This document shows positions 5,373 to 61,555 of a stretch of 64,000 nucleotides of DNA, piece after piece (the first letter of the stretch is position 1; each line of letters starts with the position of its first letter). The position numbers and the translations under genes were made by a program. Origin of the DNA: a phage; the sequence record OZ346189.1. One strand, given 5' to 3'. The notes under the pieces are model-generated. The model was not told the origin of the DNA. It did no database searches and worked only from the letters and a program-made list of their open reading frames with translations.

Positions 5373-5792
5373 ATGATCTATGAAATGCCAAAACTGATTC
5401 GTGACGATGCCCAAAACCACACCATTATTATGGGTAAACGCATGAATATCCTTTGCCGTAACGATTTCTGTGGTGTAGAATACGTTGCAGACTACTTCGG
5501 TGAGAATGGTAAACACCCTGTTCAGTTCTTCCTTGACCATGAGGATAACATTATCTGGGAGTTTGAAACTGAAGATATCCGCAACCTCTTCATCTTCCTC
5601 GGTGTCAAGGTTAAGGCCAATTTCGCGGAAGGTGAGTGCGACGATTGTGGATTTTATGAGGTGACAGACTTCTATCTCCCGAGTGGCAAGAACATTTACT
5701 ATGAGAGTCACTTCGGAAACACCAACATGCCTCAAAGCTGGGAAGAATTTTTCAGTATCGTAGAAGAGGAGCTGGCATACCGTGATTATTGA
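5373..5792 (+). CDS. hypothetical protein
   Basis: ORF with CTGGAGA RBS. Confidence 0.5.
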   Translation: MIYEMPKLIRDDAQNHTIIMGKRMNILCRNDFCGVEYVADYFGENGKHPVQFFLDHEDNIIWEFETEDIRNLFIFLGVKVKANFAEGECDDCGFYEVTDFYLPSGKNIYYESHFGNTNMPQSWEEFFSIVEEELAYRDY

Positions 5793-6240
5793 TACTGTAA
5801 AGGGAGATTTAATCTCCCTTTTTAAGAGCGGTGCTGGTCACCTAATCCACGGTTGTAACTGCTTCCACACAATGGGTAAGGGCATAGCAAAACAGATTGC
5901 CCGTGAGTTTCCTCAAGCATTGTCAGCCGACAAAGAGACCAGACACGGTTGCCTAAGTAAACTGGGTGCGTTCTCCCGATGGGAGCACTTATCTCCGAGA
6001 GGTATTGTCTACGGAATCAATCTGTATACTCAGTTCTACCCAGGGCCTAATGCTGAATATTTCTCAATCCTGAAAGGCTTTGAGCTAGTCAATGAGGTAT
6101 TCGAGGGATCGACTTTACCATTCTACATCCCTAAGATCGGATGCGGCATAGGCGGTTTGAAGTGGGAGCACGTAGAGGACGTTATTAACCTCGCCACTTT
6201 TGATATAGATATTATCGTGGTGGAGTACAAAGAGTGTTGA
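5782..6240 (+). CDS. macro-domain protein (TARG1/DarG-like ADP-ribose-processing fold)
   Basis: motif HGCNCFHTMGKGIAKQIAREFP resembles the TARG1/OARD1-type macro-domain signature (HC..DC.MGAGIA..F); GTG start with GAGGAG RBS. Confidence 0.5.
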   Translation: MIIDTVKGDLISLFKSGAGHLIHGCNCFHTMGKGIAKQIAREFPQALSADKETRHGCLSKLGAFSRWEHLSPRGIVYGINLYTQFYPGPNAEYFSILKGFELVNEVFEGSTLPFYIPKIGCGIGGLKWEHVEDVINLATFDIDIIVVEYKEC

Positions 6241-6720: not shown

Positions 6721-6751
6721 ATACACATAAACTAACAGAGAGCGATGTATT

Positions 6752-6943
6752 ATGGTAATTTTTAACCGGGATGGTATCATAGTTAGACAGCACCCGTTCC
6801 TTGAATACTATCAAATTGAGCAATGGTGCTACGGGGATTGCAGTCACTCCTATGGGCAAAGTTGGGGATATCGTACAGTTTTTGAATCAACAGACCTTGA
6901 CAAAGTAAGACAGAAAGTTTTAGAACTTATTAACAACAAGTGA
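6752..6943 (+). CDS. hypothetical protein
   Basis: ORF. Confidence 0.4.
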   Translation: MVIFNRDGIIVRQHPFLEYYQIEQWCYGDCSHSYGQSWGYRTVFESTDLDKVRQKVLELINNK

Positions 6944-6952
6944 GTATGATAT

Positions 6953-7285
6953 ATGGTAACATTAGAAAGACGTAAAGCTATCGCCGCCACACTGGCAGAC
7001 ATCTTTTGGGATTGCAACTTAAAAGATACCAGAAATTGTGGCGCATCTGTAGATGTATTATTCCCACGGCCCACCATTGTTGCAATGGGAAACCTGTTAA
7101 ACGTAGTGTACGGAGCATGGGACAAAGAAGGTGGATTCTATATCTGGCAACCTGACTACAGAGCCTGGAAAGAGGTAAGGGGTGCGGTTGACTTTGGGCC
7201 TGCAAGTGCTAAGATGGATGGCTGGGAAATTTATGTTGGAAACGACATGAAGCTGAAAGGCGAGATTGTTTACTGGTTACCTTAA
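6953..7285 (+). CDS. hypothetical protein
   Basis: ORF. Confidence 0.45.
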   Translation: MVTLERRKAIAATLADIFWDCNLKDTRNCGASVDVLFPRPTIVAMGNLLNVVYGAWDKEGGFYIWQPDYRAWKEVRGAVDFGPASAKMDGWEIYVGNDMKLKGEIVYWLP

Positions 7286-7305
7286 GAGAATGCAGGAGAT
7301 AAAGT

Positions 7306-7551
7306 ATGAACAAAGGGTGGACATTTGTAGACGGCGTTGAAAACATGCCTCTAGGAAAGTATATTGTAGCCATGGCAGATGAGAATGGCAAGGTTGATTT
7401 CGGAGCTTGCGAGGTTGTTCTTGCAGGATCTGGTGACTATGCTCACAAAACTGGGATAATTAACGGTCATTTCTACTTTGATTACAACCCTGTTGTGGCG
7501 TATATGGCTATGCCAGAGTTCGAGCTCCCAAAGGAGGGTGCGGATGTTTAA
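7306..7551 (+). CDS. hypothetical protein
   Basis: ORF with CAGGAGA RBS. Confidence 0.45.
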   Translation: MNKGWTFVDGVENMPLGKYIVAMADENGKVDFGACEVVLAGSGDYAHKTGIINGHFYFDYNPVVAYMAMPEFELPKEGADV

Positions 7552-7741
7552 GCTTAAATCTGCATGGAACATCGCTGTGGGGGACGAGATCCGCATCCCA
7601 GGTGGAAAGACCATTATGAAGATATCTCGTATCGAGTACGAAGGTGATCGTGTATTTCATATCTTTGCAGAAGATGGTCGAGAAATTTATATACAGGCAG
7701 GCTCTCACATCTATATTCGTAAGAAAGGGGACGACAAATGA
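7544..7741 (+). CDS. hypothetical protein
   Basis: ATG at 7544 after AAGGAGGG RBS (track ORF 7478..7741). Confidence 0.45.
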   Translation: MFKLKSAWNIAVGDEIRIPGGKTIMKISRIEYEGDRVFHIFAEDGREIYIQAGSHIYIRKKGDDK

Positions 7742-8067
7742 CAGAGATCATCATTTCAACTGCAGGGTATGTGTTCCTGACAATCATTGCACTGACCATT
7801 TTGGTGGTGGTATATGGAATTGTTATTCTCCCTATTCTTGAGACAATTAGTTTGTGTCGGTGTTGGAGAAAGGCTTACGGTCCACAGCCGTGGAAGGACT
7901 GGCCCCACCTGGTGCACATAGCGTTCTCTTATGCTTATGATCACGCCAGCAGTGCATGCATAACCGGGTATCACGCCCACAACTGGAGCTGGGAAGGGTT
8001 GAGGAAATGGAATGTTACAAAGACCATACCTCTGCGCATGTACAAACCTAAAAACAAAGACAGCTGA
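7738..8067 (+). CDS. hypothetical membrane protein
   Basis: hydrophobic N-terminal segment; start overlaps previous stop. Confidence 0.45.
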   Translation: MTEIIISTAGYVFLTIIALTILVVVYGIVILPILETISLCRCWRKAYGPQPWKDWPHLVHIAFSYAYDHASSACITGYHAHNWSWEGLRKWNVTKTIPLRMYKPKNKDS

Positions 8068-8099
8068 TACTTGAAAATCCCTGGCATATCAAGTGTAAG

Positions 8100-8600
8100 G
8101 AGGATTTCTAAAATGGATTTCCTCCTTTTGATATTTCACCGGGCCAGATATTTTAAAATTCTTAGAAAATCAGAAAATGGATCGAAAACTAAAATGGATT
8201 TTTCAAGACAGGCACGATAAGATGTGCTGCTCATTCTATCGTTCGCACCGTACTTTAAGTCACTATTCCAGATTTTTCCGCACATACTCTCACCCTTCTA
8301 CCAGAACTTTCCCAGCTTACCTCTGACCTTTTATAACAATAAGTCCATTATTATCAGAAAGTTTCGGCACATCTCTTTCGGTACTCGATCTGTTTTTCAT
8401 TTCAAAGACCTGATTTTCTGAAAATTTTTCTCGATAAATTTCTTAGTACTCGATCTGTTTTTCGTTTTCTGAATCGGATTTTCTGGAAATCGTTCCAGCC
8501 CTCGACCTGAAATTTTTGGGGACGAAATCGATTTTTCGTTTTCAGAAATGGATTTTTAAAATTTCTATATGGGAATATTTTATGGGATACTGTTTTATAG
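8100..8600. repeat. iteron-rich AT-rich non-coding region
   Basis: repeated short motifs (aaatggattt x4, tactcgatctgtttttc x2, cgatttttcgttttc) with no convincing ORF. Confidence 0.5.
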
Positions 8601-8617
8601 GAAATTGTTACGGAGGG

Positions 8618-8635
8618 TAATTAGCATGCTAATTA
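8618..8635. promoter_or_regulatory. perfect 18-bp palindrome TAATTAGCATGCTAATTA
   Basis: perfect inverted repeat seen directly; operator-like. Confidence 0.4.
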
Positions 8636-8671
8636 AATTTATTAAATGCGAGGAGTTCTCATTTAGAATTT

Positions 8672-8745
8672 TGAATGATAATCATTCTCGTTTGCAGAAT
8701 AACGGGCAGGCCCGGTGATTGTCTCCCGGCCCCTGTTGCCCCGGC
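8672..8745 (+). repeat. repeat element R1 (core GGCAGGCCCGGTGATTGTCTCCC at 8705..8727)
   Basis: related direct copy R2 at 8803..8880; inverted copy of the core at 18492..18514 (22/23 nt identical). Confidence 0.55.
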
Positions 8746-8802
8746 TTGTTATTATAGTATCACACAGGACAAAGAAAGCAAGGATTTTTTGCATAAATTT
8801 TT

Positions 8803-8880
8803 AAATGATAATGATAACCGTTCTCATTTTATGCAGCGCCCATCCCCGGTGGTTGTCTCCCCCGTCACCGGTGCCTGCCG
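8803..8880 (+). repeat. repeat element R2 (R1-like)
   Basis: shares AATGATAAT...TCTC.TTT...CCGGTG.TTGTCTCCC with R1. Confidence 0.5.
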
Positions 8881-9344
8881 TCCTTTCGATAGGTATATTG
8901 TGCCACCTGGCGGGGCCGCTGTCAACACTTCTTCAAAAATTTTTTCTAACATAATGCACCAACCGCTGCAACCTGGCGGGGCCAGCCTGGCAGGACCTGA
9001 CTGACCAGGTAGGAGAGAGTGAAAACTTGCAAACCTGGTAGGCCTATGCTACAGGGCAGGTAACAATTGAAGAGGAGGTACAAAAATGAAAAGTAATATA
9101 ATCCCCTGGAAAATGTAGCGATCAACGCCGCTGAAGTTATCACCCTGGTTGAAAAGGCTATGGCGGGAGCGTTGGAACATAAAGAAGAGTACGAAAAATG
9201 ATGGTTAACCTGGCAGGGGCGGCGGCTGGAGAATTCTTCCCAAAAAATAATTCTAACTAATGGTTGACAGCTCGGAGAGTTCTGTTATTCTTATCCTCGC
9301 AAGGTGAACAACACCACACTAATTAACAGAGAGGATAAAAAATC

Positions 9345-9542
9345 ATGAACGCCTACGGAATTAAAGTACGTCGCAACACTCACCAGGCCGTCACCGATCA
9401 AATGGTTTGCCAGGTGGACGTAACCATCAACAACGGGCAAGGCCTTTATAAATTCCGTCGCGGTCAGAGCTATACCCGGCAACAGCTTAATCGTTGCGCC
9501 CTGACAAAAGGCCAGATCAACCACTGGTTTAATAAAAAATAA
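9345..9542 (+). CDS. hypothetical protein
   Basis: ORF with AGAGGA RBS. Confidence 0.5.
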   Translation: MNAYGIKVRRNTHQAVTDQMVCQVDVTINNGQGLYKFRRGQSYTRQQLNRCALTKGQINHWFNKK

Positions 9543-9606
9543 GTATTGACATATAGTCTGACACCAAATACACTAAAAGCACAAAAGACACTAAGAGGAT
9601 AAAATC

Positions 9607-10005
9607 ATGAAAACCACTACCTTTAATTTTGATAATGCGGACTTTTCTTTTTCTGATGTCAAGAACTGCCGCCGGGATCGTGGATTTTACAAGGCTTATA
9701 ATCTGGTGGGCCTGGACGATGACAATAATTTGCACGAAGTAGCTGAGATCCGGTATTATGCCGCCGCCAGCGGGAACACTCAATACTGCGTTTTTTGGAT
9801 TCACGACAACAAGAACAATAAGTACGGTTATACTGGCGGGAAGGCGAGCGGTCACGGTTACGATAAAGCTAATGCAGCACTTGAGAGCGCATTAAATGCT
9901 ATGGGGATCACTGCCAACGGCTGGATCTATGAAGAAGAGTTTTTGTCGGCACTTGCTGACCACCTGGGCTATAAAAAGCACATTGTAACATGCGCCCACG
10001 AATAA
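9607..10005 (+). CDS. hypothetical protein
   Basis: ORF with TAAGAGGA RBS and upstream TTGACA promoter. Confidence 0.5.
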   Translation: MKTTTFNFDNADFSFSDVKNCRRDRGFYKAYNLVGLDDDNNLHEVAEIRYYAAASGNTQYCVFWIHDNKNNKYGYTGGKASGHGYDKANAALESALNAMGITANGWIYEEEFLSALADHLGYKKHIVTCAHE

Positions 10006-18404: not shown

Positions 18405-18491
18405 ATAAAAAGTGTTTTGGTACTGATTTTGGGGTTGACTTGTTCGGCCCCTTTTGCTATTCTTATTAAACGGGCGGCACTTGGGAACAGG

Positions 18492-18514
18492 GGGAGACAA
18501 TCACCAGGCCTGCC
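18492..18514 (-). repeat. inverted copy of the R1 core (GGCAGGCCTGGTGATTGTCTCCC on the minus strand)
   Basis: 22/23 nt identical to 8705..8727 in inverted orientation. Confidence 0.55.
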
Positions 18515-18539
18515 TGTCATATAAGAACTATAAAAACCG

Positions 18540-18568
18540 TTGACATCTGCCAGGGGGTGGGGTAACAT
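18540..18568 (+). promoter_or_regulatory. sigma70-like promoter (TTGACA-17-TAACAT)
   Basis: hexamers upstream of ORF 18623. Confidence 0.4.
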
Positions 18569-18622
18569 TTATCTTGAAGGGGCAAAGGTGCCCACACAAC
18601 AACCAGAAGAGAGGAAAACACT

Positions 18623-19783: not shown

Positions 19784-19801
19784 TTTTTTAACTGAATTAT
19801 C

Positions 19802-19826
19802 AAGGGGCTTAGGCCCCTTTCTTTTT
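19802..19826 (+). terminator. rho-independent terminator ending the plus-strand block
   Basis: hairpin AAGGGGC-tta-GCCCCTT followed by TTTCTTTTT. Confidence 0.65.
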
Positions 19827-20212
19827 GTCTGCTCTTCCTCCTACCACAAACGGCCCAGCCTGGCAAGTGGAATAATTGACTAGCCATCAATCCCACACAC
19901 TGTACAAATATACATGGAAAATAACTATTGCATAATTTTTCATTGTGTGGTAGCAGGTCCATTTTTACCCGTTTTCTCTCTCAAAATTGCACGTAATGCC
20001 GCTATTGCACAAAATTTAACCTGATGCACATCTTCAATATCTTGTCAACAACTAAAAATCTTTATAAGTCATACACTTACACACTCACAAAAGCGTGTTC
20101 TACGTGAAAAATCGAGTATAACTATAGCCGCCAGATCTCAGAATTTACAAAGGCCATCATTAAAGCTTCAGTAAAATCAGTCATTCCTCACCTCTTGTTA
20201 GTCACTATACTA

Positions 20213-20476
20213 TCATTTATCCTTGTCGTCAAGAACTTTTTTAAATCTTTCAGGGATATCTCCCGTTCTTAGATAGTTCATGACCTCGCAAGGTTCCCAC
20301 TTGAATTTCTTACAGAGCAGGGCGGCTGAGATTGTTTCATTGCGAAAAGAAAGGATATTAATATCCCACTCTGAGAACCCCAACTTCCGAAGGGTAGCTA
20401 CAGAAATCCTCACCGCAACCCAGCAGCAAAAACATGCAACAAACGCCACTGCTACAACCCACATCAGGATGTTCAT
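20213..20476 (-). CDS. hypothetical membrane protein
   Basis: ORF with N-terminal TM segment. Confidence 0.4.
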   Translation of the reverse strand: MNILMWVVAVAFVACFCCWVAVRISVATLRKLGFSEWDINILSFRNETISAALLCKKFKWEPCEVMNYLRTGDIPERFKKVLDDKDK

Positions 20477-20565
20477 ATAAGCACCTTACTGAAATACAAG
20501 ACACAGTGTTAAGGTTACTGACCAGCAAATAATTAACAGTGCCGTTGCAACCTTGGCAAGATTTA

Positions 20566-20853
20566 TCATAGTGCCTCTAAGATTTCATATCCTTCGGGTC
20601 GGAATACAAGCCACTCCGTGGCTCCGTTTGGTCGATACGCTTTATACAGAACAACCTGGTCTCGGCACATGCACATGGCTACATAGTTTTCATCCACACC
20701 TGCAGCCTGCATTGCATCTTCTTCTCCGGCAACTGCTTTGCTTACAACTTCCTTGGTAGGCAGGTGTGCGATCAGCTCGTCACCATCATTAATTCCAAAA
20801 TGGCTGAGTTCGCCGTTGGTATCTTTAATCTTAATCTTAACCAGATCTTTCAT
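20566..20853 (-). CDS. hypothetical small protein (family A-like)
   Basis: ORF in a tandem minus-strand array; C-terminal E-x-x-E-A-L resembles the family A tail. Confidence 0.45.
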   Translation of the reverse strand: MKDLVKIKIKDTNGELSHFGINDGDELIAHLPTKEVVSKAVAGEEDAMQAAGVDENYVAMCMCRDQVVLYKAYRPNGATEWLVFRPEGYEILEAL

Positions 20854-21182
20854 TAGTCTTCCCCCAGGTTCAAAGGTCCTAAGATTTCATATGCCAGATT
20901 AGAAGTTACAAGAGGGTCTTCTGCGTCTTTAGTATTATACCACCCGTGAATAACCAGAGTCCCACTTTGTTTCATGTCCAACTGGAACTCTTCTGCCGTT
21001 TCCTCATCCAGCTCCAAGATTTCCATAAGGTATTTGATGTTAGGGAGGTATGCAGCTGTTACAGTCCCCTCTACCAGACCTTCAGGCCAACCTACATCTG
21101 GATGACAAGTAGGAACCAGATTGGTCAGCTTAATGGTGTACGCTTTTTCTGCACGAGCCTTCAGTAACGGGTCAATCTTCAT
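20853..21182 (-). CDS. hypothetical protein
   Basis: ORF, coupled start/stop. Confidence 0.45.
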   Translation of the reverse strand: MKIDPLLKARAEKAYTIKLTNLVPTCHPDVGWPEGLVEGTVTAAYLPNIKYLMEILELDEETAEEFQLDMKQSGTLVIHGWYNTKDAEDPLVTSNLAYEILGPLNLGED

Positions 21183-21532
21183 TATTCGTCCTCCTCTTCG
21201 GTACCTGCTTCCAGTAATAAGTTAAGAATATCTTCTGCACAAGGCTCATAGAACTCTTGGCCTTCATTATCGATGATTTTGTAGTCATCTCCGCGAATAA
21301 TCAGAGGATCACTCTCAAAATTATCGAGACCTTTAACAACGACAACACGATCGATTGCCATCATTGTAAGAACTTTATCGACATCTTCCTCTGCTACACC
21401 ATACTGCAGCAGAATGTCTTTGGTAGGAGGAACAGCATCCACCACAACACCGTTACCAAAACCTTCCGGTAAGTTAGCTAAAATATCTTCCGGAACCACA
21501 CTAACATCAAAACCAGTAATTTCTACTTTCAT
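21182..21532 (-). CDS. hypothetical acidic protein
   Basis: ORF, coupled. Confidence 0.45.
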   Translation of the reverse strand: MKVEITGFDVSVVPEDILANLPEGFGNGVVVDAVPPTKDILLQYGVAEEDVDKVLTMMAIDRVVVVKGLDNFESDPLIIRGDDYKIIDNEGQEFYEPCAEDILNLLLEAGTEEEDE

Positions 21533-57876: not shown

Positions 57877-58227
57877 ATGAAAGATGGGGATAAGCTGCTA
57901 TATCTTAAAGTCCCCCTTGAAATACTATCTATGTCAAAAGTTTTGAATGACACAACTGGGGAGGTTGTTGTTCTTGACTTGTATGACAAGATCGTATACT
58001 GCTACCTGCACAACTGGTATAAGCTTGGAGGAAATTCACGCTTCACACCAAGCACAAGGAAAATTGCAGCAGATGTTGGGATAAAGAAAACAAAAGCAGC
58101 AGCGTGCGTTAAAACTTTAGAATGTGCAGGAGTGGTTGAAACATCCACACAAGGGAGAGGTAAAAGATGCACATTTTCCAAAGTTTTGCCACCAGAAGAA
58201 GTTATTCGGATGTCAACAACTGGTTAG
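57877..58227 (+). CDS. putative HTH DNA-binding protein
   Basis: helix-turn-helix-like segment PSTRKIAADVGIKKTKAAACVKTLECAGVV; GGAGAA RBS; directly upstream of palindromic repeats. Confidence 0.4.
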   Translation: MKDGDKLLYLKVPLEILSMSKVLNDTTGEVVVLDLYDKIVYCYLHNWYKLGGNSRFTPSTRKIAADVGIKKTKAAACVKTLECAGVVETSTQGRGKRCTFSKVLPPEEVIRMSTTG

Positions 58228-58297
58228 ACCAGTAAAAACTTAAATATCTGTACTATAAGGATTCGTATGTTTTATGTTCGCCATGGAACGGATACTA

Positions 58298-58366
58298 TTA
58301 ACTGTCCGTGATACGGACACATCTGCCCGTAATACGGACACTAACTGTCCGTGATACGGACACATA
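58298..58366. promoter_or_regulatory. two identical palindromic sites TAACTGTCCGTGATACGGACACAT plus a related half-site, followed by an AT-rich tract
   Basis: perfect inverted repeat TGTCCG-N5-CGGACA at 58303..58319 and 58349..58365; CCGTAATACGG between. Confidence 0.55.
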
Positions 58367-58866
58367 AAGAATATAACTAAAATAACTAAATAATAAAAAA
58401 TAAAAGATCTAGTACTTATGGTACTAAGTACATATACTTAACTTATGTAGAATATACTAGATCCTAAGTACCATGTTTTAAATTTATTACTTACTATGGG
58501 CAGTGTCGGCCCTTCATTGGCACTCGCCTACGAGGGGCGAGATGCCGGGCCTCCTTGGTGCACACAATAACAGAAGTTCATACATGCAGGTCTGTTAACA
58601 TGTGTGGGAGCGAAGCGATAGCGCAGGCCAAAGGCCGAGCACTGATGTGGACCACCGACGAAAGCTTGCCAGCGCCGTAAGGAGTCGGTTGAGAGTCTCC
58701 CGCACGAGCTTGGATGAAGTTTATGTGTGGAAACTGACAAGAAGGCCCCTAAATCGCTCCACAGCTATATAAACTATACCAGGTAATGCAATCGCACCAG
58801 TTTGATAGAAAAGCTCGTTACAAAGCGATACAGTGAGTTTTTCTATAACTTGAAGAGGAGGCAGCT

Positions 58867-60742: not shown

Positions 60743-60817
60743 GCCCTGTTAGCTTAGTGGATAAAGCAGCGGCCTTCTAAGCCGTTGACACTGGTTCGAG
60801 TCCAGTACGGGGTGCCA
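60743..60817 (+). tRNA. tRNA-Arg (anticodon TCT)
   Basis: hand-folded cloverleaf: acceptor GCCCTGT/ACGGGGT, anticodon stem GCGGC/GCCGT with loop CTTCTAA, T-arm ACTGG-TTCGAGT-CCAGT, encoded CCA. Confidence 0.65.
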
Positions 60818-60821
60818 AATT

Positions 60822-60900
60822 GGGGAGTTATCCCGTAGAGGTAGCGGTGTAGACTGTAAATCTATTGTCATTGCGACTCGGGTGGTTCGACTCCACCACT
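60822..60900 (+). tRNA. tRNA-Tyr (anticodon GTA)
   Basis: acceptor GGGGAGT/ACTCCCC, anticodon loop CTGTAAA, long variable arm, T-arm GGTGG-TTCGACT-CCACC, CCA. Confidence 0.65.
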
Positions 60901-61022
60901 CCCCACCAAATTTATATTTTTAGATGCATAAATAATACAGATAATGGCATTGATATTTATCGTCGTTTATACTAGTCACTAACTGCTCGAAAATCAGTGT
61001 CATTATCAGTATAATTTATAAA

Positions 61023-61113
61023 GGAGGGTAGGGAGCAATGGTGCTCAAGCGGTCTTGAAAACCGTCCCGTTGAGGATGACTCGATGATGGTTCGATTCCA
61101 TTACTCTCCGCCA
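61023..61113 (+). tRNA. tRNA-Ser (anticodon TGA)
   Basis: class II fold: 3-bp D stem, anticodon loop CTTGAAA, long variable arm, T-loop TTCGATT, CCA; acceptor has one G-U pair. Confidence 0.55.
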
Positions 61114-61210
61114 CATTGTTGACCTTGTAATTAAGCGAAAGCCGGAAGCAGAACCGGATTATCAAATGTTACAGTCGTCATCGCCGACTAGCAACATGGT
61201 CAACATACTG

Positions 61211-61308
61211 AGCTAGGTAAGCCCTTTGGCAAGGGCGAGGATTTTTAATCCTGAAAATAGACGAGGTAGTCGTTGAATACATAGGTGGTTCGATTCCATC
61301 ACCTAGCA
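61211..61308 (+). tRNA. atypical tRNA-like sequence (anticodon loop reads TTTTTAA, possibly Lys-TTT) with an approximately 30-nt insertion in the variable region
   Basis: acceptor GCTAGGT/ACCTAGC, D-arm GCCC/GGGC and T-arm GGTGG-TTCGATT-CCATC are recognisable; anticodon stem has only 4 bp; no encoded CCA. Confidence 0.3.
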
Positions 61309-61315
61309 CCTTTTT

Positions 61316-61391
61316 GCTGATGTAGCACAATCGGTAGTGCAATTGATTTGTAATCAATAGGTTGTAGGTTCAAGTCCTGCCATCAGCACCA
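61316..61391 (+). tRNA. tRNA-Thr (anticodon TGT)
   Basis: acceptor GCTGATG/CATCAGC, anticodon stem ATTGA/TCAAT with loop TTTGTAA, T-loop TTCAAGT, CCA. Confidence 0.65.
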
Positions 61392-61392
61392 A

Positions 61393-61467
61393 GGCCCTGT
61401 AGCTGGAAGGTTCAAGCAAGCGACTCATAATCGCCAGACGGTGGTTCAATTCCACCCAGGGCCACCA
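61393..61467 (+). tRNA. tRNA-Met or tRNA-Ile2 (anticodon CAT)
   Basis: acceptor GGCCCTG/CAGGGCC, anticodon loop CTCATAA, T-arm GGTGG-TTCAATT-CCACC, CCA. Confidence 0.6.
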
Positions 61468-61478
61468 AATAGTAAATA

Positions 61479-61555
61479 CTCCGCGTAGCTCAGCTTGGTA
61501 GAGCGCCTGATTTGGGATCAGGAGGTCGAGTGTTCGAATCACTCCGTGGAGACCA
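61479..61555 (+). tRNA. tRNA-Pro (anticodon TGG)
   Basis: acceptor CTCCGCG/CGTGGAG, D-arm GCTC-AGCTTGGTA-GAGC, anticodon stem CCTGA/TCAGG with loop TTTGGGA, T-arm GAGTG-TTCGAAT-CACTC, CCA. Confidence 0.7.

Follow-up and report, generated by a model that had tools for sequence, protein, structure and literature searches.

Enterobacterial Fur operators, such as those of the aerobactin gene iucA and of the fepA-fes, fepD-entS, and fepB-entC intervals, are AT-rich inverted repeats of 19 bp that occur as several adjacent boxes, the proximal one overlapping the -35 hexamer and spacer of a sigma-70 promoter. The face-to-face switches of coliphages 186 and P2 place convergent promoters a few tens of base pairs apart, with an operator over one of them. 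Sequence features suggestive of both are combined in an untranslated module of about 1 kb (positions 8068-9085) in the 64-kb stretch analysed here (64,000 nucleotides of sequence record OZ346189.1, hereafter the window), a genome segment of a Vequintavirus, that is, an rV5-like E. coli myovirus. Our tentative reading is that the module may act as a composite, protein-loaded transcription boundary or switch between two early operons, with host Fur (iron) input. A multi-operator region fits best because phased repeat units abut a predicted host Fur operator array and candidate face-to-face promoters, and for positions 8090-8640 a transcription control region is more likely than a replication origin.

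The gap extends from the stop codon of a 109-codon gene (8067) to the ATG at 9086, and lies between the long replication/early operon and the final ~11 kb of early genes ahead of the genome terminus. A preliminary description of this DNA had outlined a non-coding stretch at 8090-8640 between two gene blocks and proposed a replication origin, a packaging or partition site, or a multi-operator regulatory region. The non-coding stretch is real and does lie between two blocks of genes, all on the + strand, but it is the left part of a gap whose true limits are 8068-9085. In an alignment of 11 phages (the window and 10 relatives), most small open reading frames (ORFs) of the gap have a stop, a frameshift, or a lost start in some of the relatives, in agreement with the earlier statement that no convincing ORF is present. 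ORFs 8113-8220, 8136-8285 (- strand), 8224-8421, 8516-8620, 8626-8718, and 8675-9004 were rejected because they are broken in some relatives and show no third-position bias; the first of these (35 codons) has a stop in relative L130 and variable ends. ORF 8663-8794 (- strand) was rejected although it is intact in all 11 phages, since it lies in near-invariant DNA, is without third-position bias, and lacks a start codon in another genus. Public records leave the gap empty or fill it with differing, mutually inconsistent hypothetical ORFs, and the analysis corrects gene calls in many records. The box labeled "non-coding" in a figure of the rV5 genome paper cannot be taken for this gap; that record has a larger empty region at 104.0-106.6 kb. 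Overall, the earlier account is partly confirmed, being largely right in what it observed, less so for a palindrome and a ribosome-binding site treated below, and its interpretation is partly supported, with the multi-operator option fitting best, the origin weakened, and packaging unlikely.

Conservation in related phages, which the preliminary description had named as a check, is borne out. Positions 7700-9300 match more than 110 phage records of Vequintavirus at 88% to 94% identity, and the repeat units and adjoining operator array recur in other genera. Within the alignment, 8160-8200, 8440-8560, and 8640-8920 are 97% to 99% identical, above the flanking genes, and 8205-8380 and 8930-9085 evolve fast. 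Judging from these identities, the non-coding DNA of the gap is under strong constraint. The only part of the gap conserved as DNA to other genera and to another subfamily in a distant-homology search is 8626-8790, which takes in the strong box of the predicted Fur array A (Table 1).

To look for Fur operators, we scanned the sequence with the 19-bp consensus GATAATGATAATCATTATC or its form shifted by 6 nt, AATGATAATCATTATCATT. Sites with two to three mismatches form two arrays. Array A includes, besides its strong box, a decayed box at 8645-8663, 29 nt to the left, and in array B the sequence GATAATGATAACCGTTCTC (8807-8825) agrees with the classical consensus in 16 of 19 positions. Outside the two arrays, no site in the window has three or fewer mismatches (0.04 matches of this quality expected in 64 kb), and the whole rV5 genome has none outside the gap. 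Scanned in the same way, the fepA-fes, fepD-entS, and fepB-entC regions of the E. coli K-12 enterobactin cluster score three to five mismatches; the phage sites thus match the consensus as well as proven operators do, or better. The exact 20-nt box is also found in more than 100 unrelated viral contigs, T5-like phages among them, as would be expected of a general host operator more than of a site specific to phages. Every genus examined has one to five boxes, with most adjacent pairs 29 nt apart, and the boxes are kept in at least seven genera infecting Escherichia, Klebsiella, Salmonella, Serratia, Cronobacter, Pectobacterium, and Erwinia. A BLAST search of the Fur-box segment against E. coli genomes was uninformative, the motif being too short, and the literature searched for Fur boxes in virulent phages yielded no relevant paper, nor any on such boxes in rV5-like phages. 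Compared with the enterobacterial operators, the phage boxes, to which Fur is predicted to bind, differ in being carried by a virulent phage without an iron gene nearby, in their number and predominant 29-nt spacing, and in facing convergent promoters while abutting 70-bp units.

Box A overlaps the promoter-like sequence TTGAAT-18-CAGAAT, our candidate rightward promoter P(+), and box B has no clear + strand promoter. P(+) is kept at the promoter-proximal box in most genera (TTGAAT-18-TAGAAT in relative L151) and faces two leftward promoter-like sites, P(-)A and P(-)B, ~40 and ~180 nt away. In 10 of 15 segments from several genera, the top sigma-70 match is a - strand TTGnnn-16/17-TATWWT at the position of P(-)A with an unconserved spacer; relatives alter the third position of the -10 hexamer of P(-)B (CAAAAT or CATAAT). 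Facing - strand promoter-like sites with near-consensus hexamers and unconserved spacers are present in almost every genus. The arrangement resembles the 186 and P2 switches; however, the window phage is virulent, no repressor genes flank the promoter pair, and the operator is that of a host regulator.

Each leftward promoter is followed by the conserved word GGAGACAAYCACC...CTGCCYGYYAT, of which the rV5 genome has three copies, each just downstream of a sigma-70 promoter. Near-consensus leftward promoters followed by a conserved leader word and no conserved ORF are also what a non-coding RNA locus would show, with one or more A-rich RNAs, small or long, covering the Fur boxes and units and the conserved sequence acting as RNA; the third promoter and leader copy, at 18436-18510, is a further point in its favor. 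We consider this quite improbable, however, since 14 leader sequences yield no consensus RNA fold or covariation on either strand, no - strand terminator is seen, and neither 7000-10000 nor the five relatives searched has a match in Rfam 15 at E <= 1 (elsewhere in the window only tRNAs match). The spacing between units and boxes and the palindromic operators argue for recognition as duplex DNA. In the intergenic region 18405-18622, which holds the third copy, TTGACT-17-TATTCT precedes GGGGGAGACAATCACCAGGCCTGCCTGTCAT; a further promoter, TTGACA-17-TAACAT, and a gene come next, and Fur boxes are lacking from this region.

To the left of the boxes, the short repeated motifs of the earlier account turn out to be parts of three direct repeat units of 65-74 bp, spaced 65 and 74 nt, with the core GTACTCGATCTGTTTTTC. 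The window has two exact copies of this 18-mer, against 0.05 expected within three mismatches in 64 kb. The report that tactcgatctgtttttc occurs twice is correct (8382-8398 and 8447-8463), whereas cgatttttcgttttc, also listed as a repeat, is present once (8529-8543), with the related tgtttttcgttttc at 8456. Within the complete rV5 genome the repeat core, AAATGGATTT, and the strong Fur boxes are confined to this gap. The third, degenerate unit could also form a 16-bp, G.U-rich hairpin (8512-8549), followed by GGATTTTT, that folds on the + strand only (-15.9 kcal/mol, z = -2.8). Sigma-70 promoters were considered as a function of the units and rejected, as the scan gave no promoter-like site inside them on either strand, and the H-NS nucleation motif TCGATAAATT was rejected with one exact copy (8431-8440) and no clustering.

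Homologous units are present in at least five genera of the Vequintavirinae, with two to four clear units each. Carriers include Seunavirus (LNA4 and PVP-SE1), Mydovirus (KpS8 and AV124), Certrevirus (KaOmega and PBES02), Serratia phage Kashira, and several metagenomic contigs. Outside the genus the units have the form GGTWCTCGATCG.TTTTTC ... CGTATTTTTTCT ... GAAAAAATTTTT and recur with a period of 65-78 nt, and their order and orientation are kept across genera. A pattern scan of viral contigs returned 23 loci, of which 13 look genuine, and all of these are ordered as units, Fur-like boxes, and GGTGnTTGT. In other genera the units abut the Fur-box array at a near-fixed distance: six loci have three clear units, and in these the interval from the start of the last one to the first Fur box is 115-119 nt. 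With its degenerate third unit and decayed first box included in the count, the window agrees with this spacing. In Phapecoctavirus and Justusliebigvirus (phi92-like) the place is taken by a different repeat, as would be expected if the postulated protein on the units is phage-encoded, which is probable, and co-evolves with its sites.

In the transcription boundary that we favor, the repeat units would load a sequence-specific DNA-binding protein, probably encoded by the phage, and Fur-Fe2+ would bind the operators. Together, Fur and the unit-bound protein could form one nucleoprotein complex that insulates the two operons and sets which way RNA polymerase departs from the face-to-face promoters, to the right into the terminal early block or to the left into the repeats, and the iron status of the host would thereby feed into early phage transcription. 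On replicating phage DNA, the boxes might also titrate Fur and de-repress host iron uptake, an additional effect that is plausible because the phage encodes the iron-dependent ribonucleotide reductases NrdAB and NrdDG. If Fur binds, a strictly virulent phage would read or manipulate host iron status via borrowed operators, and iron-dependent infection outcomes would be predicted in the gut and in infected tissue. The Vequintavirinae and their relatives are widely used in therapy and biocontrol, and their regulatory DNA is essentially unannotated.

Several points weigh against this interpretation. For repression, the boxes are unusually placed, 60-75 nt downstream of the predicted leftward starts, and Pfam and PHROG searches of the neighbors found no iron-related gene beside the module. 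The -10 hexamer of P(+) is non-canonical in Mydovirus (CTGAAT), and its -35 hexamer is poor in the Stephanstirmvirinae. The assignment of boxes 8674-8692 and 8804-8828 to host Fur is a prediction, the binder of the repeat units is postulated, and all functional steps proposed above derive from sequence and conservation. Direct repeats, AT-rich DNA, and promoters pointing inward would also fit an origin of replication.

Such an origin, primary or secondary, would be activated by transcription. The units would bind an initiator or organizer, the AT-rich linker at 8525-8660 would unwind, Fur would modulate firing, and the two leftward promoters would give an activating or priming transcript, as in the primary origin of T7 or oriF and oriG of T4, where an AT-rich unwinding region comes after a promoter. 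The phage does have a T7-like DNA polymerase and primase-helicase, and strong promoters in tandem, which have no conserved ORF to serve, are directed into AT-rich DNA, although these promoters are of the host sigma-70 type and Fur boxes lie between them and the AT-rich DNA. As in lambda-type iteron origins, direct repeats stand beside the most AT-rich stretch (8525-8660 is 70% to 78% AT and would serve as an adjacent unwinding element), and the module is unique in the genome; the terminator described below would insulate it from upstream transcription. However, the repeats of iteron origins are about 20 bp at two-turn spacing, and 8371-8556 has units of 65-74 bp in place of three or more helix-phased direct repeats of 17-22 bp. 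No initiator gene adjoins the module, the DnaA and IHF consensus sequences are absent from it, and GATC occurs three times in 1 kb compared with 5.6 per kb overall.

GC skew, a second check named in the preliminary description, turns at ~19.5 kb and ~56.5 kb, where gene orientation changes, and not at 8-9 kb. This speaks against an origin here, but since skew follows the direction of transcription it is a weak test. The rV5 genome paper likewise reports skew turns only at changes of transcription direction, and its authors could not place the origin; our literature search found no relevant paper on the origin of rV5-like phages.

A far more canonical locus lies elsewhere in the window. The 116-codon winged-helix gene at 57877-58224 matches PHROG families annotated as "replication initiation protein" and scores slightly below the cut-offs for Pfam HTH_36 and DUF6945. 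Directly 3' of it are three iterons of 21-22 bp, TAACTGTCCGTGATACGGACACAT (58299-58365), followed by ~115 bp of very AT-rich DNA, so that 58299-58480 has the lambda-type pattern beside an initiator-like gene. The locus is conserved in 118 records, and a length difference of ~21 nt between records equals one iteron length. On sequence grounds, 57877-58480 appears to be the best origin candidate in the window, and because of it we regard an origin at 8090-8640 as unlikely.

The position of the module relative to the genome end bears on two further explanations. Repeat-rich, A/T-tract-rich non-coding DNA is common at packaging sites, and the module could on this account be a pac or cos site or the genome terminus. 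We give this hardly any credence because the terminal repeats of two relatives lie elsewhere. HdK5, of the same genus, has a 459-bp direct terminal repeat in a convergent non-coding region 11.2-12.2 kb from the module, and in KPP-1, of a sister genus, the published 514-bp repeat, located by coverage and PhageTerm, is in a convergent region 8.3 kb from its Fur site. The module does not coincide with a terminal repeat and is not the terminus. In the window, a convergent and largely non-coding region spans ~19800-21300, and the genome terminus is probably there. HdK5 1140-1485 maps to 20148-19803; the HdK5 record starts with the direct terminal repeat, and its first ~1.1 kb has no match in the window.

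The distance from the end recalls the injection-stop (iss) region of T5, where DNA transfer halts after the first step. T5 iss, a large untranslated stretch located ~8% from a genome end, bounds a terminal block of early genes of small size and without assigned function and has dense direct repeats and palindromes, and the module is likewise large, untranslated, and repeat-rich, lying at 8.0% to 8.8% of the genome (11.2-12.2 kb) from the HdK5 end (~6% in KPP-1) and bounding a terminal block of small genes without assigned function, transcribed toward the end in this phage. Copies of T5 direct repeat C and palindromes E-I (9468-9637, beside the nick at 7.9%) are near-consensus Fur boxes, for example AATGAGAATCATTATCATT at 9577 in T5 (L167, AY587007), and DT57C-like phages show the same Fur-box-like repeats (in L048 at 6369 and 6726-6981). 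T5 palindrome D, tactgtataaatatacagta, looks like a LexA box. From this likeness in place and content, rV5-like and phi92-like phages and the unrelated T5-like phages may keep Fur arrays in a large untranslated region ~6-8% from what is possibly the first-entering end, and the module might be an entry checkpoint, the counterpart of T5 injection-stop, at which Fur and the unit-bound protein would bind the incoming DNA and pause or regulate its transfer until expression of the terminal early genes. The long-known, unexplained repeats of T5 would then have a concrete candidate protein.

We nevertheless rate such a checkpoint as improbable because DnaA boxes, a long terminal repeat, the A1 and A2 genes, and evidence of two-step transfer are missing. 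A comparative preprint on the T5 region describes eight conserved DnaA boxes and a need for A1 and A2, and does not mention Fur. By contrast, the module has no TTWTNCACA (the DnaA box) in 8068-9086 and no conserved set of such boxes in inverted repeats, with only scattered single boxes in some relatives. T5 iss is inside a 10-kb left terminal repeat, whereas the module is outside a short one; no gene for a large A1-like protein is found in the terminal block, nor was an A2 counterpart seen in the window phage, and no report of two-step injection is known for rV5-like phages. The transcription boundary with Fur input remains the reading that we prefer, and the coordinates of its predicted elements and of the other features of the gap are collected in Table 1.

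Table 1 Features of the untranslated gap at 8068-9085; promoters, leader words, and Fur arrays are predictions.
Feature	Position	Strand	Details
Rho-independent terminator of upstream operon	8097..8131	+	Fold, compensatory changes
Near-invariant AT-rich block	8132..8204	+	One-orientation (T/C)GGATTT(T) words; identity 0.99 over 8160-8200 (11 phages)
Fast-evolving spacer	8205..8380	.	Identity 0.68-0.79; + strand C 0.28, G 0.13
Repeat unit 1	8371..8435	+	Core GTACTCGATCTGTTTTTC 8381-8398, then GATTTTCTG, GAAAATTTTTC
Repeat unit 2	8436..8509	+	Core 8446-8463; GATTTTCTG at 8477; palindrome CTGGAAATCGTTCCAG; nearly invariant in relatives
Repeat unit 3, degenerate	8510..8556	+	74% identical to unit 2
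Most AT-rich linker	8557..8644	.	70-78% AT (AT profile); 18-bp palindrome 8618-8635
Fur operator array A (predicted)	8645..8692	.	Strong box 8674-8692 AATGATAATCATTCTCGTT, 2 mismatches to 19-mer
Candidate rightward promoter P(+)	8671..8700	+	TTGAAT-18-CAGAAT; under Fur box A; predicted start ~8707
Conserved leader word A	8713..8726	-	GGAGACAATCACC on - strand, then CTGCCCGTTAT
Leftward promoter P(-)A (predicted)	8752..8782	-	TTGCTT-19-TATAAT; A/T-rich upstream tract; predicted start ~8745
Fur operator array B (predicted)	8804..8828	.	Overlapping boxes 8804-8822 and 8810-8828, 3 mismatches each
Leader word B	8847..8860	-	GGAGACAACCACC on - strand; paralogue of A
Leftward promoter P(-)B (predicted)	8897..8925	-	TTGACA-17-(TG)-CACAAT; 10/12 matches; predicted start ~8890
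Variable right flank	8926..9085	+	ACCTGGYRGG words 8905, 8971, 9033; weak rightward promoter candidates; ends at ATG 9086

At the left border, the sequence TAAGGAGG (8097-8104), taken earlier for a strong ribosome-binding site, is the 5' arm of a terminator hairpin. The stem is formed by this arm, AAGGAGGA, and TCCTCCTT (8120-8127); a T-run comes after it, and the ATG at 8113 falls in the loop, which is long (15 nt) and partly paired. The RNA fold is stable on the + strand (-16.7 kcal/mol, z = -3.35, vs -11.6, z = -1.75, on the - strand). The compensatory pair G8103A and C8121T in relative L130, and A8101G opposite T8123 in L001, L132, and L133, a G.U pair possible only in + strand RNA, keep the stem, and we therefore identify 8097-8131 as a + strand Rho-independent terminator that ends the upstream operon.

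The near-invariant block that follows carries words in a single orientation. In the region as a whole such words are strongly enriched: GATTTT[CT] occurs six times (0.15 expected) and [TC]GGATTT four times (0.09 expected). The repeat aaatggattt of the preliminary description has three exact copies (8111, 8192, and 8546) rather than four; neither the 64 kb (0.41 expected) nor the rV5 genome of 138 kb has any others, apart from two degenerate copies in the region (aaatggatcg and aatcggattt). AAATGGATTT is found at 8111 and 8192, with aaatggatcg at 8176, and related GAAATGGTTTTC words occupy the matching relative place in Seunavirus and Mydovirus. A role of the C-rich spacer as a Rho-utilization-like site was rejected; the signal is clear in the window, Kashira, and anhysbys and is not universal in other genera.

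The perfect 18-bp palindrome TAATTAGCATGCTAATTA is located at 8618-8635 as first described, and is probably incidental. A perfect palindrome of this length arises in 26% of simulated 64-kb sequences, and its RNA fold is weak (-3.9 kcal/mol, z = -0.9). One-sided changes make it imperfect in 5 of the 10 relatives, and the corresponding linker of other genera lacks it. A hairpin or operator was rejected on the grounds of the weak, non-significant fold and the lack of conservation.

The word ACCTGGYRGG of the right flank has five + strand copies in the window (8905, 8971, 9033, 9208, and 16099) compared with 0.19 expected. Two or three of these are within promoter-like spacers, and similar words are found in the promoter spacers of relatives. 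The small gene that begins at the end of the gap (9086-9260) has 57-58 codons in annotated relatives and is intact in several of them. It is frameshifted here and in three relatives, and a short C-run at ~9101-9105 is length-variable.

Pfam and PHROG searches of the flanking genes gave a Macro domain as the sole domain match upstream, in a 152-codon early protein with predicted ADP-ribose binding (5782-6237, Pfam E = 1.6e-6), and only families of unknown function downstream. No DNA-binding or replication domain was found in the neighboring genes.

Relatives outside Vequintavirus have an additional conserved, GC-rich element of ~90 nt (..ctaccggcgatccacc..gccccgccttt.cgccgtgggg..), at 2645-2740 in L004, 2170-2260 in L134, 2150-2245 in L136, 2690-2770 in L003, and 1950-2040 in L151. 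In the two relatives examined for this, PVP-SE1 and KaOmega, the element comes with a near-consensus leftward promoter of its own; several genera have a small gene on the - strand to the right of it. The element is absent from the window, has no Rfam match, and may be a small RNA. Elsewhere in the window, six clustered tRNA genes are present on the + strand at 60743-61552. About 16 GenBank records (MG0656xx) titled "Campylobacter phage", with C. jejuni as host, are ~92% identical across the module region, and this host label looks doubtful.

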